Below the pieces are notes generated by a model, which was not told the origin of the DNA, made no database searches, and saw only the letters and a program-made list of their open reading frames with translations. Shown piece by piece: positions 25,187-62,924 of a DNA stretch of 64,000 bases (positions are counted from its first letter, which is position 1; every line of letters begins with the position of its first letter). The translations under genes and the position numbers were made by a program. This DNA comes from Rhodocyclales bacterium (lineage in GTDB: Bacteria > Pseudomonadota > Gammaproteobacteria > Burkholderiales > Rhodocyclaceae): the NCBI GenBank assembly GCA_016235745.1, contig JACRJA010000071.1:21913-85912 (forward strand). The letters are read 5' to 3'.

Positions 25187-25384
25187 ATCTCAGAATAATC
25201 GCATAAAATTCCTTTGTCATGATTCGTGATGAGCCCGAACCATGACGCGCCGCATCGCAATCCCGTCCGATCTCTTTGCTACACAAGAACGTCGCGCCAG
25301 GCTCGATCGGCTGGGCGATTCGCAGCAGGAGACGGGCAAAGAGGTGTCATATCGGCTGCTCCAATCGGGTCGTAGATACTTTTG

Positions 25385-25413
25385 TTGATACTCAAAAGAG
25401 AATCGCCTATACT
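25385..25413 (+). promoter_or_regulatory. near-consensus sigma-70 promoter for mazEF (TTGATA-N17-TATACT), overlapped by the inverted repeat CTTTTG…CAAAAG
   Basis: TTGATA at 25385-25390 and TATACT at 25408-25413. It lies 37 nt upstream of the mazE ATG. The palindromic arms CTTTTG and CAAAAG flank the -35 and could be an autoregulatory operator. Confidence 0.5.
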
Positions 25414-25449
25414 CGATTCCCATCGATATATGCTGCTACGGAGGCAGTC

Positions 25450-25692
25450 ATGGCGCTTCAACGCGTAAAAAAATGGGGTAACAGCCCAGCCATCCGCTTG
25501 CCGGCCGCGGTCATGGAAGCGGCGCATTTGTCGCTCGAACAAGCCGTGGAGGTTCGCGCCGAGAACGGTCGGATCATCATTGAGCCTGCAGCCCCCCTCT
25601 ACGAGCTGGATGACTTGCTGGCTGGGATCACCGCCAAGAATCTGCATCGTGAGCAGGACTTCGGGGTGGCCCAAGGGCGGGAATTGCTCTGA
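25450..25692 (+). CDS. mazE: type II antitoxin MazE/PemI (AbrB/SpoVT fold)
   Basis: 80-aa product MALQRVKKWGNSPAIRLPAAVMEAAHL… with the classic WGNSxAxRxP swapped-hairpin motif. The start is taken at the internal ATG preceded by GGAGG. It overlaps mazF by 1 nt. Confidence 0.8.
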   Translation: MALQRVKKWGNSPAIRLPAAVMEAAHLSLEQAVEVRAENGRIIIEPAAPLYELDDLLAGITAKNLHREQDFGVAQGRELL

Positions 25693-26030
25693 TGACGATG
25701 TACGTTCCGGATGAAGGCGACATCGTCTGGTTGAATTTCACGCCACACAGCGGACACGAGCAGGCCGGTCGCCGGCCGGCTGTCGTCTTGAGCCCGAAGG
25801 CTTACAATCAGCGCTCGGGACTGCTCGTCTGCGTCCCGATCACCAACCAGATCAAGGGTTATCCGTTCGAGGTCGTGCTCAGTGGCAGCGGTGCGACGGG
25901 CGCAGCCTTGGCCGATCAGGTTAAAAGCCTAGACTGGAAATCCCGCCAGGCAGAGCGCAAAGGCCAAGCCACCCCTGGGGAACTTGCCGAGATCAAGGGC
26001 AAGATCAAGGCGCTGCTCAAACTCGCCTGA
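25692..26030 (+). CDS. mazF: type II toxin MazF/PemK endoribonuclease
   Basis: 112-aa ORF with a PemK pattern (YVPDEGDIVWLNF.P..GHEQAGRRPAVVLS…VCVPITNQIKGYPFEV…DQVKSLDW). Confidence 0.85.
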   Translation: MTMYVPDEGDIVWLNFTPHSGHEQAGRRPAVVLSPKAYNQRSGLLVCVPITNQIKGYPFEVVLSGSGATGAALADQVKSLDWKSRQAERKGQATPGELAEIKGKIKALLKLA

Positions 26031-46941: not shown

Positions 46942-47337
46942 TCAGCCAGCCTGCACCGTGATGCGCTTGGGTTGGGCCTGTTGATGTTTAGGAATGCGCA
47001 GTTCGAGCACTCCCTGGTCGAGCTTGGCCTGGATGGCGTTGGTGTCGAGGTCGCGCGACAGGGTGAAGCTGCGGGCATAGCGCGGCGCGCGCACCTCGGC
47101 GTAGATCGGCTCCATGCCTTCGCCCACCGGAAGCGACACGTTGCCTTCGATGGTCAGGGTGTCCCCCTCGACCTTGATCTCCAGCGCCTCGCGGCTCACG
47201 CCGGGCAGGTCGGCCCACAGGGTGATGCCGGTCTGATCCTCGATGATGTCGACGCGCGGCACCGCCGTCGGGACGCGCTGGGCTTCCTGGGCGGTGACGT
47301 TGGTGCCGGGGCGGGTAGTGACGTTGGTTTCAGCCAT
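46942..47337 (-). CDS. Hsp20/alpha-crystallin family small heat-shock protein (copy 2)
   Basis: 131-aa product MAETNVTT…VDIIEDQTGITLWADLPGVSREALEIKVEGDTLTIEG…AKLDQGVLELRIPK. The start is at the ATG preceded by AGGAGGAA. Confidence 0.85.
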   Translation of the reverse strand: MAETNVTTRPGTNVTAQEAQRVPTAVPRVDIIEDQTGITLWADLPGVSREALEIKVEGDTLTIEGNVSLPVGEGMEPIYAEVRAPRYARSFTLSRDLDTNAIQAKLDQGVLELRIPKHQQAQPKRITVQAG

Positions 47338-47357
47338 GGTCGTTCCTCCTTTCGCGA

Positions 47358-47798
47358 TCATTTGATTTCGATGCGGCGCGGTTGCAGATGGGCCTTGCGC
47401 GCGATGCGCAGGCGCAGTACGCCGTCGCGGTAGGTCGCTTCGACCTTGTCCGGATCGAGATCCTCGGACAGGCTGAGGGTGCGGCGGAACTTGCCGGCGA
47501 AGCGCTCGTTGGCATAGACCGTGACCTGGCCGTTCTCCGGGATCGACGAGGAGCGCTCGCCGGCGATGGTGAGCACGCCTTGCTCGAGCGTGACCTCGAG
47601 TTTGGCCGGATCCACGCCGGGCAGGAAGGCATACACTTCGACCGCTTCCAGCGTGCGGCCAATGTTGATGGTTGGATAGACGGTGTCGAGCGCCACTTCG
47701 CGGATGGCCGCCGGCCAGCCGCTCCACAGGCGGTCGAGTTCGCGCTGCAGCCGGTCGAACTCTTCGAACAGGTTGGTAGGAAAGAGTGTCGTGACCAT
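47358..47798 (-). CDS. Hsp20/alpha-crystallin family small heat-shock protein (copy 1)
   Basis: 146-aa product [25 protein letters not shown]…[27 protein letters not shown]…[14 protein letters not shown]. The start is preceded by AAGGAGG. Confidence 0.85.
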
Positions 47799-47875
47799 CG
47801 TGCTGCCTCCTTGAGATGTTGGCCGGGCGCAGTCGCCCGGCGGTGGGACATAAACGCGTGCGGTTGCGTTTATCG

Positions 47876-47904
47876 ATATGGGTTGTCCCGCTGAGAATTT
47901 CAAG
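47876..47904 (-). promoter_or_regulatory. RpoH (sigma-32)-type promoter for the hsp20 operon: CTTGAAA-N14-ACCCATAT
   Basis: The minus strand reads CTTGAAA (complement of 47898-47904), 14 nt, then ACCCATAT (complement of 47876-47883). The consensus is CTTGAAA-N13-15-CCCCATNT. It lies 78 nt upstream of the first hsp20 ATG. Confidence 0.5.
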
Positions 47905-48043
47905 GGGGGCATCGAGCGCGGTGCTTCACCGCGACGCGCTTGTAATTTCCCATACCGCCTCCAATAATGTAGAGGCCCGGGCGGGGCTGGAGCTGTCGTC
48001 GCCGCCCGGAGCGCACTCATCGGCTGTTCGGAGGCGGTACGGC

Positions 48044-49003
48044 ATGAAGTTTCGCGACTATTACGAGATTCTCGGCGTGCCGCGCACGGCTACGGCGGAG
48101 GAAATCAAGAAGGCCTGGCGCAAGCTCGCGCGCAAGTATCATCCGGACGTGAGCAAGGAAGCCGACGCGGCCGAGCGCATGAAGGAGATCAACGAGGCCT
48201 ACGAGGTGCTTTCCGATCCGGAGAAGCGCGCCGCCTACGATCGCCTGGGCGAGCACTGGCGCCAAGGCGAGGAGTTTTCGCCGCCGCCGGGCTGGGACGC
48301 CGGATTCGAATTCCGCGGCGCGCCGGGTGGCCGCCCGTTCGAAGGGATGGATTTTTCCGAGTTTTTCGAGTCGCTCTTCGGACGCATGCACCGCGGCACG
48401 GCCGGCACACGCCAGCGCCGTACTGGCGGCTTTGCCGTGCGGGGCGAAGACCATCACGCCAAGATCCTCATCGATCTCGAAGACAGCCTGCAGGGCGCCA
48501 CGCGCTCGGTCACCCTGCGCGCGCCCGAGCTCGACGCTTCCGGCCACGTGGTGCTGCGCGAGCGTACCCTCAACGTGCGCATCCCCAAGGGCATCCGGCC
48601 GGGACAGAAGATCCGGCTCGCCGGTCAGGGAGGGCCGGGGGTGAACGGCGGCCCGCCGGGCGATCTCTACCTGGAAGTGGAATTTCGCCCCCATCCGCTC
48701 TATCGCGTCGAGGACAAGGATCTCTACTTGACGGTGCCGGTGGCGCCGTGGGAGGCAGTCCTCGGCGCCAAGATCCAGATCCCGACGCCATACGGACCGG
48801 TGACGCTCACCATTGCGCCGGATTCGCAACACGGTCGCAAGCTGCGCCTGCGCGGCAAGGGACTGCCCAGCGATCCCCCGGGTGATCTCTACGCGGTGCT
48901 CGAGGTGGTCTTGCCCCCGTCGAGCGATCCGAAAGTGCGGGAACATTTCGCGGCGATGGCGCGCGAGGTACAGTTCAATCCCCGCGCGCGCTGGGGCCGG
49001 TGA
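48044..49003 (+). CDS. cbpA: curved-DNA-binding DnaJ-like co-chaperone CbpA
   Basis: J-domain (DYYEILGV…KYHPDVSK…) without a Zn-finger domain, ~319 aa, followed by cbpM. The start is at the internal [15 protein letters not shown]. Confidence 0.85.
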
Positions 49004-57880: not shown

Positions 57881-58315
57881 ATGCCGGCGCGGTTCGCCAT
57901 CCCGACTGCGGTGCAGGTGCGCTTGTTCGACGGGCAGGGGCGGGTGCTCTTCCTGCGCCGCGCCGGTACGGGCTTTTTCGACGGGTTCTGGAGTCTGCCG
58001 GGCGGGCACGTGGAAAACGGTGAGAGCCTGCGCCAGGCCGCCGTGCGCGAGCTCGCCGAGGAGCTGGGCATCGTGGTGGCGCAGGAGGCGCTCGCGGCGG
58101 TGGCGGTGGTGCATCGCGCCTCCGATACCAACCGCATCGAGTTCCTCTTCGATGCGCATCGCTGGCAGGGAGAGGCGCGCATCGCCGAGCCGCACCGCTG
58201 CGACGCCTTGCGTTGGGAGGATCCGGCGCGCCCGCCCGAGCCCTTCGCCCCCTACCTCGCGGCGGTGTGGCCGCAGCTGGGGCGGCAATGGCTGCTCGAG
58301 GTGGGATGGGACTAA
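57881..58315 (+). CDS. NUDIX hydrolase
   Basis: Nudix box GGHVENGESLRQAAVRELAEELG. The start is either ATG 57881 or GTG 57872, which overlaps the dut stop. Confidence 0.75.
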   Translation: MPARFAIPTAVQVRLFDGQGRVLFLRRAGTGFFDGFWSLPGGHVENGESLRQAAVRELAEELGIVVAQEALAAVAVVHRASDTNRIEFLFDAHRWQGEARIAEPHRCDALRWEDPARPPEPFAPYLAAVWPQLGRQWLLEVGWD

Positions 58316-58485
58316 CCCCCAGCCGTCCCGAGGGGGCTGGTGTGCCGTGAATCCCCGTGCTTCTTTTGCCGGAGGCAGCAACGGGCGGCATTCGATGAGG
58401 CCGCGGCTTGTGGTCATGCTGGCGCCGCGCCGCGTTAGCCCGTAAAATGGCGCCTTTGCGCCGCCATCGAGCATCCGGACGGACC

Positions 58486-59409
58486 ATGAGCGAAGAAAAA
58501 CCCACGTTTCAGGACCTTATCCTGCGCCTGCAGCGCTACTGGGCCGAGCTGGGCTGCGTGCTGCTGCAGCCCTACGACCTGGAGGTGGGCGCGGGAACCT
58601 CGCATACCGCCACCTTTCTGCGCGCCATCGGCCCCGAGCCGTGGAACGCTGCCTACGTGCAGCCCTCGCGCCGCCCCAAGGATGGGCGCTACGGCGAGAA
58701 CCCCAACCGGCTGCAGCACTACTACCAGTTCCAGGTGGTGCTGAAACCCTCGCCGCTCGACATCCAGGAGCGCTACCTCGCCAGCCTCGTGGCGCTGGGG
58801 ATCGACCCGCGCGAGCACGACGTGCGCTTCGTCGAGGACGACTGGGAAAACCCCACGCTGGGCGCCTGGGGCCTGGGCTGGGAGGTGTGGCTCGATGGTA
58901 TGGAGGTGACGCAATTCACCTATTTCCAGCAGGTGGGGGGGCTGGACTGCCGCCCCGTGCTCGGCGAGATCACCTATGGGCTCGAGCGCCTGGCGATGTA
59001 CCTGCAGGGCGTGGAGAACGTCTATGACCTCATTTGGACGCGCACGGGCGAGGGTCAGGTGGTCACCTACGGCGACGTCTTCCATCAGAACGAGGTGGAG
59101 CAGTCGAAATACAACTTCGAGTATGCCAACGTGCCCCTGCTCTTCGAGCTCTTCGGCCACTTCGAGGCCGAGGCCAAGCGCCTGATCGAGGCGGCGCTGG
59201 TGCTGCCCGCCTACGAGATGGTGCTCAAGGCCGCGCACACCTTCAATCTGCTCGATGCACGCGGGGCGATCTCGGTGACCGAACGCGCCGCCTATATCGG
59301 GCGCATCCGGGCGCTCGCCCGCGCGGTGGCCCAGGCCTATTTCGCCAGCCGCGAGGCGCTGGGCTTTCCCATGCTCGCTGCGACCGCCAAGAAAGGAGCT
59401 AGACTCTAG
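58486..59409 (+). CDS. glyQ: glycine--tRNA ligase alpha subunit
   Basis: 307-aa product [31 protein letters not shown]…[12 protein letters not shown]…, highly conserved GlyQ sequence. Confidence 0.9.
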
Positions 59410-60802
59410 TATTGCAAATAGTGCGCAATAGTAGATTAAAGAATACAAATAGCCATGCACCTAACCCACAAGATCGCCCTTTGTCCGACGCCAGCGCAAG
59501 CCGACTATTTCAAGCGCGCTTGCGGCACGGCCCGCCGTGTCTGGAACTGGGCGCTCGCTGAGTGGAACAAGCAGTACGCGGCAAGCGGCAAACCCAACGC
59601 CATGGCGCTGAAAAAGCAGTTCAACGCCCTCAAGTACAGCGATCCGCAGTGGCTCGACAAGAACGGGCACCCTTGGCTACGCGACATCCATCGTGATGCC
59701 CATGCCCGGCCGTTCGATCATCTCGCCAAGGCATGGAGCCGGTTCTTCGCCGACCTCAAGGCCGGGAAACCCGCGCATGCGCCACAGTTCAAGAAAAAAG
59801 GCCGCTGCCGCGACAGCTTCTACGTCGCCAACGACAAGCTCACGGTCGCAGACAAGACGATCCGCCTTCCCAAGATCGGTTGGGTGCGGATGCTCGAAGC
59901 CTTGCGCTTCGAAGGCAAGATCCTTGGTGCTACCGTTTCGCGCTCGGCGGATCGCTGGTTCGTCGCGATCCAGGTCGAGGTGCCGGACCGCCAGTTTTAT
60001 CTCCCGCGCGCCGCAAATGGCACGGTTGGAGTCGATCTAGGCGTCAAAACTGCGGTCAAGCTCTCGACCGGCGAGGCCATCGACGCGCCCAAGCCGCTCA
60101 AGGCCGCGCTGCGACGGCTCAAAATCCGCAGCCGCCGCCTCAGCCGTAAAGTGAAAGCGGCCAAAGTCGCGGCAGGGTTTGCGCCGAACGCCCGGCTGCC
60201 AAAAGGCACCAAACTCCCGGTATCCAACAACCGTCAGAAGTCCGCTCAGACCTTGGCAAGGCTGCACGCCCGCATTGCCAATATCCGAGCGGACTTCACT
60301 CACAAGCTCACCACTCGGCTCTGCCGTGAAAACCAAGCGGTCGGGATCGAGGACTTGCACGTCAAGGGAATGCTGGCGAACGACAAGCTCGCCCGCGCCC
60401 TCAGCGACGTGGGCTTTGGAAGGTTCCGCGCGCAGATGGAGTATAAGGCCAAGCGCTACGGCACCCGGCTGATCCTCGCCGATCGCTGGTATCCCAGCAG
60501 CCGCTTGTGTTCCGTCTGCAATTGGAAGAACGAGGCGCTGACCTTGAGCGACCGGGAATGGACGTGTCCGGAATGCGGCGCGCACCATGACCGCGACTAC
60601 AACGCGGCGCTCAACCTGCAACGGCTGGCAACCGCAACTGCCCTACCCGAGGCGAGTCCGGCCGGTAACGGCGGCGCTGCGGCAGAGAGGGTCTCTGCCG
60701 TAGCCGGGAAAGTTACGCCTGTCAGAGACGACAGTGGTCCTCAAGACACGTCGGGGCAGGAAGGGAACCGTGCGCACTTTCGCGCACGTTCTTGAGAGCA
60801 GC
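59398..60802 (+). mobile_element. IS200/IS605-family (IS1341-type, tnpA-less) element carrying only tnpB, inserted between glyQ and glyS; ends approximate
   Basis: glyQ and glyS are separated by a 1.4-kb insert. It consists of a 45-bp AT-rich leader, a 446-codon TnpB ORF and a 14-bp tail. No transposase (Y1 or serine) gene is present. The boundaries are inferred from the composition change and from the reading frames of the flanking genes. Confidence 0.6.
59455..60795 (+). CDS. tnpB: TnpB (InsQ) RNA-guided DNA endonuclease, RuvC triad and zinc ribbon intact
   Basis: 446-aa ORF with the typical N-terminus (HKIALCPTPAQADYFKRACGTARRVWNWAL). RuvC motifs are VGVDLGV (D194), GIEDLHVKGM (E299) and HHDRDYNAALNL (D381). 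Zn ribbon is CSVC…CPEC (C352/355/371/374). Confidence 0.85.
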   Translation: MHLTHKIALCPTPAQADYFKRACGTARRVWNWALAEWNKQYAASGKPNAMALKKQFNALKYSDPQWLDKNGHPWLRDIHRDAHARPFDHLAKAWSRFFADLKAGKPAHAPQFKKKGRCRDSFYVANDKLTVADKTIRLPKIGWVRMLEALRFEGKILGATVSRSADRWFVAIQVEVPDRQFYLPRAANGTVGVDLGVKTAVKLSTGEAIDAPKPLKAALRRLKIRSRRLSRKVKAAKVAAGFAPNARLPKGTKLPVSNNRQKSAQTLARLHARIANIRADFTHKLTTRLCRENQAVGIEDLHVKGMLANDKLARALSDVGFGRFRAQMEYKAKRYGTRLILADRWYPSSRLCSVCNWKNEALTLSDREWTCPECGAHHDRDYNAALNLQRLATATALPEASPAGNGGAAAERVSAVAGKVTPVRDDSGPQDTSGQEGNRAHFRARS

Positions 60803-60809
60803 CTGAGTC

Positions 60810-62924
60810 ATGAGCGAACGGGAAACCCTGCTGGTCGAACTCGTCACCGAGGAACTGCCGCCCAAGGCGCTGCCGCGGCTGGGCGAATCTTTTGGGCGCG
60901 GCGTGCTCGAGCGCTTGCAGGCGCGGCGCCTGGCCGAGGCCGATGCTGCCTGGCGCTGGTTCGCCAGCCCCCGGCGGCTGGCGGTGCAGGTGCGCGACGT
61001 GCGCGAGCGTGCCGCAGACGAACCCCGGATCGAGCGCCTCATGCCCGTAGCGGTGGCGTTCGACGCTGCCGGCAAGCCCACGGCCGCGCTGGAAAAGCGC
61101 CTCGCCGCCAAGGGGCTTACGCCGCAGAGCGCCAAGCTCGAGCGCCGGCTCGACGGCAAGCAGGAGATGCTCTACCTGCATACGGTGGAGGCCGGCGCGC
61201 GGCTCGACGAGGTGCTCGCCGCGATCGTGGCCGAGGCGATCCGCGCCCTGCCCATCCCCAAGCTCATGCGCTGGGGTTCGGGCGAGGCGCAGTTCGTGCG
61301 TCCGGTGCATCGCCTGGTGCTGCTGCACGGCGCGCGCGTGGTGCCGGGGCGCGTGCTCGACCTGGACTCGGGCCGCGAGACGCTGGGGCATCGCTTCATG
61401 AGCCGCGGCGCGATCGAGCTCGCGCAGGCCGAGGCCTATGAGCCGACGCTGCGCGCCGAGGGCAAGGTCATCGCCGACTTCGCCGAGCGGCGCGCCGAGA
61501 TCGAGCGTCAGCTGCAGGAAAAGGCCCAAGCCGAAGGGGGCGTTCTCGGCGAGCATGCGGCGCTGCTCGACGAAGTGACCGCCCTCGTCGAGCATCCCAC
61601 CGTCTATGTCGGGCGCTTCGAGGAGGAATTCCTCGCCGTGCCGCCCGAGTGCCTCATCCTGACGATGCAGGCGAACCAGAAGTATTTCCCGTTGTTCGAT
61701 GCGCAGGGGCGACTGACGAACCGCTTCCTCATCGTCTCGAACATGCACCTGTCCGAGCCCAAGCGCCGCAACATCATCGAGGGCAACGAGCGGGTGGTGC
61801 GCCCGCGCCTGGCCGATGCGCGCTTCTTCTACGAGCAGGACCGCAAGGAACGGCTGGAAGCTCGGCTGCCGCGGCTGGAAGCCATTGTCTATCACAACCG
61901 TATTGGCACTTTGGGCGCGCGGGTCGCGCGGCTCGAAGCGCTCTGCGCCTGGCTCGCCGAGCGGCTGGCTGCCGACGTGGCGCTGGCGCAGCGCGCGGCC
62001 CGGCTCGCCAAGTGCGACCTCGTCACCCAGATGGTGGGCGAATTCCCCGAGTTGCAGGGCGTGATGGGGCGCTACTATGCGCTCGCCGACGGCGAGCCGG
62101 AAGCCGTAGCCGAGGCGATCGAGGACCACTACAAGCCGCGCTTCGCCGGCGATGCGCTGCCGCGCCGGCTCACGGGGAAAATCGTGGCGCTCGCCGAGCG
62201 GCTCGATGCGCTTGCCGGGCTCTTTGCCATCGGCGAGATCCCCACCGGCGAGAAAGACCCCTATGGTCTGCGCCGCGCCGCGCTGGGGGTGCTGCGCATC
62301 GTCCTCGAAACGCCGTTGCCGCTCGAGCTCGACGCGGCGATCGAGCGCGCGCTCGCCGAGCAGCCTCCGGCGGTGCGGGCCCAAGCCCCGGCCGACACCG
62401 CCGACAAACTGCGCCGTTTCTTCGACGAGCGCCTGCGCCATTGGCTGCGCGAAGCAGGGCATGCGCTCGACGCGATCGACGCGGTGCTCGCGCTGCGCCC
62501 GAGCCGCATCGACACGGTGCCGGCGCGGCTCGAGGCGGTGGCCGCCTTCCTCGAGGCGCCGGAAGCGCCCACACTCGCCGCGGCCAACAAACGCATCGCC
62601 AACCTGCTCAAGAAAGCGGGCGAGGAAGGCGCGGCGCACGTCGACGTGGCGCTTTTCGCCGAGCCCGAGGAGAAGTCGCTCTTCGAGAAGATGCACGCCG
62701 TGGCCCCCTACGTCGCTTCGCACCTGGAAAACGAGGCCTACGCCCAGGCGCTCCGCACGCTGGTGGCCCTGGCCGCGCCGGTGGACGCCTTCTTCGATCG
62801 CGTGATGGTGCTGTGCGACGAGCCGCTCTTGCGCGCCAACCGCCTGGCGTTGCTGCGCGAGCTGTGGCGGCTCATGAATCAGGTGGCCGACCTGTCGGTG
62901 CTCGCGCGCGAGGCCGGCGGCTAA
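60810..62924 (+). CDS. glyS: glycine--tRNA ligase beta subunit
   Basis: 704-aa ORF beginning [24 protein letters not shown]…, the characteristic GlyS N-terminus. Confidence 0.9.

Follow-up and report, generated by a model that had tools for sequence, protein, structure and literature searches.

The 64,000-nt stretch of Rhodocyclales bacterium contig JACRJA010000071.1 analysed here (the window) very probably carries a 1.40-kb non-autonomous element of the IS607 family at about 59399-60799, with AG at each side. It lies between glyQ and glyS, the genes for the alpha and beta subunits of glycyl-tRNA synthetase, on the same strand as both, and comprises a short left end (LE), the nuclease gene tnpB and a right end (RE). 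The transposase gene tnpA has been deleted, insertion took place directly after a GGAG motif, and the predicted guide is of the homing type. An earlier, sequence-only reading had described tnpB as a solo gene. A transposase partner is indeed absent, but the gene is not free-standing, since it sits inside an IS607-family element that has both ends. The coordinates of all features are given in Table 1.

Profile searches placed the 446-aa tnpB product in the TnpB family, in agreement with its first identification. Three Pfam domains scored above their cut-offs: HTH_OrfB_IS605 (PF12323; 50 bits, E 2.6e-13), OrfB_IS605, the RuvC domain (PF01385; 82 bits, E 5.5e-23), and the zinc ribbon Cas12f1-like_TNB (PF07282; 83 bits, E 1.9e-23). 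The NCBIfam model guided_TnpB gave 308 bits (cut-off 100). A phmmer search against PDB sequences matched residues 7-397 to ISDra2 TnpB (8bf8/8ex9/8h1j) with E 4e-57. Counting residues along this alignment pairs GVD194LG with GVD191VG, GIE299DL with GTE278HL and HDRD381YN with HDRD361EN, so that D194, E299 and D381 align with D191, E278 and D361 of ISDra2. The three residues proposed earlier as catalytic thus occupy the conserved RuvC positions, and the CxxC...CxxC zinc ribbon reported with them is present at 352-355 and 371-374. When compared with 41 relatives, the product departed from the family consensus at 4 of 204 columns with 90% or higher conservation (G44S, I59L, Q85R and I316L). As judged from the alignment, this number of departures is usual for family members and gives no sign of decay. 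On these comparisons the product is a TnpB with intact catalytic motifs, and its nuclease activity is predicted from homology. GC content at third codon positions (GC3) is 0.76 in tnpB and 0.87-0.89 in glyQ and glyS; tnpB is considered foreign DNA because its GC3 is below that of both flanking synthetase genes.

Among the closest known systems, the TnpB-omega RNA of ISDra2 from Deinococcus radiodurans, belongs to the same protein family and has the same domain order, with the triad and zinc ribbon aligning one to one. In both elements the guide RNA comes from the tnpB 3' end and the RE, and C-terminal coding overlaps the scaffold. ISDra2 is an IS200/IS605 element with a Y1 TnpA, single-stranded DNA peel-and-paste transposition and a TTGAT target-adjacent motif (TAM), whereas in relatives of the window element the recombinase is of the serine type and the target is GGAG. 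The tail of the window TnpB also exceeds that of ISDra2 TnpB by about 20 codons, the stretch between HDRD and the stop measuring 69 codons.

Relatives of the element were searched for in a genome collection with one genome per species and, as a second set, in metagenomes. The genome collection yielded 269 relatives, the best at 79% identity, and the metagenomes at least 534. They occur in Chloroflexus, Tepidiphilus, Giesbergeria, Simplicispira, Ectothiorhodospira, Thermomonas, Massilia and others, with more than 15 copies of the family in the single genome of Chloroflexus sp. MS-G. The transposase was of the serine-recombinase type in all 38 relatives that retain a full tnpA, and of the Y1 type in none. 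In two of the relatives (L004 and L013), a 212-aa protein with MerR-HTH and Resolvase domains is encoded between the same LE and tnpB; this TnpA scored 204 bits against NCBIfam transpos_IS607 (cut-off 110). From these alignments and profile matches the family is IS607-type, with the layout LE - tnpA(Ser) - tnpB - RE.

We also considered whether the element might instead be of the IS200/IS605 (Y1) or IS1341 type, which is very improbable. The tnpB product scored slightly higher with NCBIfam IS200_TnpB (316 bits) than with IS607_TnpB (254 bits), each below its cut-off, and it is close to ISDra2 TnpB, a member of IS200/IS605. The consistent serine-recombinase type of the relatives' transposases argues against such an assignment, as does the LE, which is the one preceding a serine tnpA. 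The junctions, with a common dinucleotide and no target duplication, are likewise those of serine recombinases.

Loss of tnpA, and hence a solo tnpB, is routine in this family. Among the 73 relatives that could be assessed, tnpA was full in 38, present only as a remnant in 15 and absent from 20. A copy on a Sulfuricystis plasmid (77.6% identity) is also without tnpA. Solo TnpBs inside ends that match transposase-bearing copies have already been reported, and as mobile on average (PMC10691335). The IS1341-type and solo tnpB genes of that study resemble the window element in that tnpB stands alone between ends matching those of transposase-bearing relatives; such genes are common and are presumed to be mobilised in trans. 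IS1341 however sits within IS200/IS605, whereas the window element derives from an IS607-type parent.

The boundaries of the element were read from alignment with its relatives. In other loci the LE motif GACTCTAGTATTGCAAATAGTGCGCAATAGT (about 34 nt) immediately precedes tnpA and lies 670-870 nt upstream of tnpB. A nhmmer search with the LE profile gave a match at 59395-59432 (E 4.6e-12), the sole one in the window. On the 5' side, coding similarity to the relatives starts at the tnpB ATG; immediately ahead of this ATG, 59446-59454 keeps ..AAATAGCC, like ..GAGTAAGCC in the aligned relatives. On the 3' side, similarity to every relative ends sharply at 60801 and the flanks beyond are unrelated. 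The RE terminus reads ..CGTTCTTGAGAGCAG in the window and is conserved in the family as ..TTGA(T/G)AGCAG. Both ends are present, and neither terminal inverted repeats nor a target-site duplication were found. Full copies in the family measure 2.0-2.2 kb, against 1.40 kb in the window. Because tnpA is absent while the ends match those of tnpA-bearing relatives, the window copy is an incomplete member of the family and a non-autonomous IS607 derivative.

A search with tblastn and two family TnpAs found no serine-recombinase tnpA in the 64-kb window. By tblastn and nhmmer, the window also contained no second tnpB, LE, RE or stand-alone omega-RNA copy. Pfam detected no transposase family, Y1_Tnp included, in 30 window open reading frames (ORFs) covering all low-GC3 regions, with no dedicated six-frame Y1 profile search. 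The earlier statement that neither type of tnpA lies nearby therefore holds for the serine type throughout the window and, for the Y1 type, for the 30 ORFs scanned.

Two further arrangements were seen among the relatives. Some of them have a conserved 67-aa ORF (MTYRIESGYPLESDW...VVWRSTEERYE) placed between tnpA and tnpB, its stop 3 nt before the tnpB ATG. It was located at L011:3791-3994, in L009, L013 (frameshifted), L017 and L018, and at the plasmid locus L083:2294-2497. No Pfam family matched this ORF, the best match being DUF905 (E 0.14). The short stretch at 59446-59454 is a possible remnant of its end and all that the window keeps of it. Separately, Thermomonas hydrothermalis carries a 385-nt miniature (L035:3826-4206) consisting of the LE and omega-RNA/RE with no tnpB. 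The miniature adjoins a 3' fragment of tnpA as well as a full tnpB copy; it has the appearance of a nested insertion or of an omega-RNA element standing alone.

The insertion itself was reconstructed from an empty site. Metagenome contig L081 has flanks 90-93% identical to those of the window but no insertion, and its glyQ and glyS are 3 nt apart. The empty site reads gcaaagaaaGGAGCCTGAgtcATGagtgaacgg, with AAAGGAG meeting CCTGAGTCATG at the junction. Joining the left flank of the window (..AAAGGAG, then C) to its right flank (AG, then CCTGAGTCATGAGCGAACGG) gives the L081 sequence. The two flanks overlap by AG (ambiguously AGC), present in single copy with no duplication. Because a dinucleotide is shared and there is no target duplication at the junction, we attribute the event to serine-recombinase crossover at a dinucleotide. 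The GGAG to the left belongs to the host as the glyS Shine-Dalgarno sequence, because it is present in the L081 empty site. Read against L081, the insertion in the window is clean and separates the Shine-Dalgarno sequence of glyS from the start codon. The insertion also altered the end of GlyQ. This protein shares 88% identity with its counterpart in Hydrogenophilus thermoluteolus and 92% with the closest GlyQ, metagenome protein P0001, by which the host is related to the Hydrogenophilaceae. The native C-terminus ..KKGA has become ..KKGARL, its final two codons and stop codon (59401-59409) being element-derived; P0001 GlyQ ends ..AAKKGA. The metagenome scan revealed this insertion in no other contig.

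Across the family, GGAG was invariant directly 5' of the LE in about 57 independent insertions (about 30 from genomes and 27 from metagenomes), with nothing conserved further upstream. The target is GGAG but the RE ends in ..GCAG; the dinucleotide common to both is AG and not the canonical IS607 GG. From these ends the crossover appears to use AG, or else a mismatched GG/GC core, and would be a minor variant of the known reaction. Published IS607 elements have a GG core and the TAMs GGG or TGGG (PMC6188088, PMC10711439, bioRxiv 10.1101/2023.11.20.567912). The IS607 elements studied in these reports, ISXfa1 of Xylella (PMC10711439), the Clostridium botulinum IStron (bioRxiv 10.1101/2023.11.20.567912) and IS607 and IS1535 (PMC6188088), otherwise resemble the window family. 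They share the LE-tnpA(Ser)-tnpB-RE layout, crossover at a short dinucleotide and the lack of terminal inverted repeats and target duplication. In both groups the TAM corresponds to the target motif of the transposase, which in the window family makes GGAG the probable TAM, and invariant flanking nucleotides lie within the RNA scaffold. The window element differs in its motif (GGAG on the left, ..GCAG on the right), in having no group I intron and in the deletion of tnpA.

The odd C-terminal tail of TnpB had been put down to an overlap between protein coding and an RNA scaffold, and comparison with the relatives bore this out. In the tail (aa ~391-446) GC3 was 0.56, against 0.79 in the tnpB body. 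The entropy of the three codon positions was 0.55/0.41/1.22 in the body and 0.46/0.53/0.71 in the tail, where the periodicity of the body is gone. RNAalifold, applied to the 3' ends of 49 distinct relatives, returned a structure spanning about 60640-60799 with 41 pairs in 9 helices, 26 of the pairs showing compensatory changes. Scaffold cells were paired in 94.7% of cases compared with 37-47% when partners were slid, and double-change cells numbered 210, against 27-71 after sliding. The observed values were not reached in any of 500 shuffles. Supported by this covariation, the structure at about 60640-60801 is the omega (reRNA) scaffold, and the tail is explained by coding that overlaps it. 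Comparison of the element with Rfam, using gathering as well as permissive thresholds, matched no known RNA family and returned only chance miRNA-like matches to an inverted repeat inside tnpB (60237-60297; 26-nt arms, 85% complementary, 9-nt loop). This hairpin was dropped as an RNA feature, as covariation support for it was nil across 24 relatives.

By analogy with TnpB and IS607 biology (PMC10711439, bioRxiv 10.1101/2023.11.20.567912), the guide is predicted to be the 16-20 nt past 60801, a segment that covers the glyS start codon. Its only exact match in the window was itself. The sequence past the RE is unrelated in every other copy.

Table 1. Features of the IS607-family element and its flanking genes, with positions in the window
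Feature	Position	Strand	Details
glyQ (glycyl-tRNA synthetase alpha)	58486..59409	+	Pfam tRNA-synt_2e, E 1e-149
GGAG, host target motif, putative TAM and original glyS Shine-Dalgarno	59395..59398	+	Invariant 5' of LE in relatives; in L081 empty site
Left copy of crossover dinucleotide AG	59397-59398	+	Inferred
Left end (LE)	59399..59432	+	34 nt, CTAGACTCTAGTATTGCAAATAGTGCGCAATAGT; IS607-family end
Deletion scar and tnpB leader	59433..59454	+	Place of tnpA (in some relatives also of the 67-aa ORF)
tnpB	59455..60795	+	446 aa, ATG start, TGA stop
RuvC triad codons	D194 60034-60036, E299 60349-60351, D381 60595-60597	+	ISDra2 alignment
Zinc ribbon C352/C355/C371/C374	60508-60576	+	CxxC at 352-355 and 371-374
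Omega (reRNA) scaffold	~60640..60801	+	Overlaps last ~52 tnpB codons and RE; supported by covariation
Right copy of crossover dinucleotide AG	60800-60801	+	Inferred
Predicted guide and its DNA target	60802..60817 (possibly to 60821)	+	CCTGAGTCATGAGCGA; covers glyS start codon
glyS (glycyl-tRNA synthetase beta)	60810..62924	+	Pfam tRNA_synt_2f, E 2e-195

These features suggest how the element may have arrived and how it may be retained. A 2-bp crossover by a serine recombinase of the TnpA type would have placed it after GGAG, the glyS Shine-Dalgarno sequence. Transcription presumably reaches the element by read-through from the promoter of glyQS, and TnpB would process the transcript's 3' end to give an omega RNA with the guide CCTGAGTCATGAGCGA... 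Excision would restore GGAG followed by CCTGAGTC... (GGAG next to CCTGAG..), that is, the TAM and the target, which could then be cut, favouring re-copying of the element. In the occupied site the target is preceded by GCAG, not GGAG. Such retention would be the standard homing role of TnpB, for which a guide matching the adjacent flank is expected. Movement to new sites would need TnpA in trans.

Several observations weigh against a mobile or active copy. Neither the genome nor the metagenome collections contained a copy above 82% identity, and exact-sequence look-ups of TnpB and GlyS gave no match; recent activity of this lineage is thus not demonstrable. A promoter and terminator scan of 58300-61000 found no plus-strand terminator and no sigma-70-like promoter. 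As tnpB also has no Shine-Dalgarno sequence, its duplex with the anti-Shine-Dalgarno reaching only -0.9 kcal/mol, the protein level may be low. With an LE of only about 34 nt, mobilisation may have been lost; in a Clostridium IS607 element about 40 bp of the LE was required for full excision (bioRxiv 10.1101/2023.11.20.567912).

The truncated LE and the lack of a tnpA in the window also fit a stranded relic, which we regard as a real though tentative possibility. The element would then be neutral or slightly deleterious, its TnpB intact only through recency, and it would decay in time. The insertion is missing from the closest available relative and is therefore evolutionarily young, in line with such recency. 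On the other hand, TnpB-based retention needs no TnpA, solo TnpBs are on average mobile according to the report cited above (PMC10691335), and an autonomous copy may exist elsewhere in the genome, of which the window alone was covered. A relic would also overlap with the non-autonomous IS607 element favoured here, from which it differs solely on residual activity.

Domestication by the host had been raised as well, and here the earlier suggestion of co-option found no support. A TnpB serving as a regulator or defence nuclease guided to the glyS 5' region could be seen in the overlap of the guide with the glyS start codon and in the sense orientation within a housekeeping operon. TldRs are comparable, being derived from TnpB, without a transposase and guided to the 5' region of a host gene (PMC10705468). 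They are however without RuvC residues and transposon ends and are conserved at their locus, whereas the window copy has its triad and both ends intact and its locus is empty in the relative with 90-93% identical flanks. The view that it is no nuclease-dead TldR-type derivative was thus upheld. A guide that matches the adjacent flank is moreover the default for all family copies, and none of the relatives was seen at the same locus. Domestication of this copy is therefore highly unlikely.

The position of the element raises another question, namely how glyS is translated. Because the insertion split it from its start codon, glyS is without its own Shine-Dalgarno sequence, and the duplex with the anti-Shine-Dalgarno weakens from -7.9 kcal/mol in the empty site to -2.7 in the window. 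From the tnpB TGA to the glyS ATG the distance is 14 nt. The element might then be a translationally integrated passenger, belonging to a GGAG-targeting subfamily that lives between Shine-Dalgarno sequence and start codon. Its open tnpB frame would let ribosomes stop 3-6 nt before the boundary and re-initiate on the host gene, and glyS would depend on tnpB translation. We consider this somewhat unlikely, but several family-wide patterns fit it. Counted from HDRD to the end of the RE, the length is divisible by 3 in 62/66 genome and 61/66 metagenome copies, with roughly a dozen length classes represented. In 57/66 genome and 56/66 metagenome copies the stop codon falls within the invariant TGATAGCAG terminus, at 3 or 6 nt from the boundary.

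Start codons next to the RE were counted as ATG only, as ATG/GTG/TTG within 20 nt proved uninformative, with a background of 23-27% in these GC-rich loci. Of 66 independent insertions, 27 had the ATG of an ORF of at least 100 codons 0-13 nt past the RE, usually at 5-8 nt; for GGAG sites as a whole in these loci the figure was 8.6% (p ~1e-12). In the metagenome set the same test gave 9/42 (p 0.008). By contrast, Chloroflexus copies keep the frame open yet adjoin a start codon in only 1 of 13 cases, and the enrichment could simply mean that insertions survive when they lie outside coding sequence. The tail may serve a function of the protein, or the stops may be incidental to a sequence requirement of TnpA or the omega RNA. 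In the window, tnpB lacks a Shine-Dalgarno sequence and starts 45 nt past the glyQ stop, and ribosome flux through it may be low. Coupling of this kind was not found described in the literature. If it does occur, the dependence of glyS on tnpB translation would place the open frame under purifying selection and shield the tnpA-less element from decay.

Two other features of the window were recorded. A MazE antitoxin and PemK-MazF toxin pair at 25246-26030 occupies its lowest-GC patch (0.59 compared with about 0.67) and is probably another horizontally acquired module. Two adjacent Hsp20/alpha-crystallin ORFs (46942-48089, minus strand) lie in a lower-GC3 region.

As a TnpB element without tnpA, the window copy is one more member of a large known class in which the solo state is common. 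The main value of the analysis is a correct annotation, that of an IS607-derived element with defined ends, an empty site, a guide and a probable GGAG TAM. The protein could be of use as a candidate compact nuclease whose source lineage is likely thermophilic. For the family, the targeting of GGAG Shine-Dalgarno sequences, a frame that stays open up to the element boundary and an essential gene deprived of its ribosome-binding site could together show how OMEGA elements (obligate mobile element-guided activity) limit the cost of insertion into operons.

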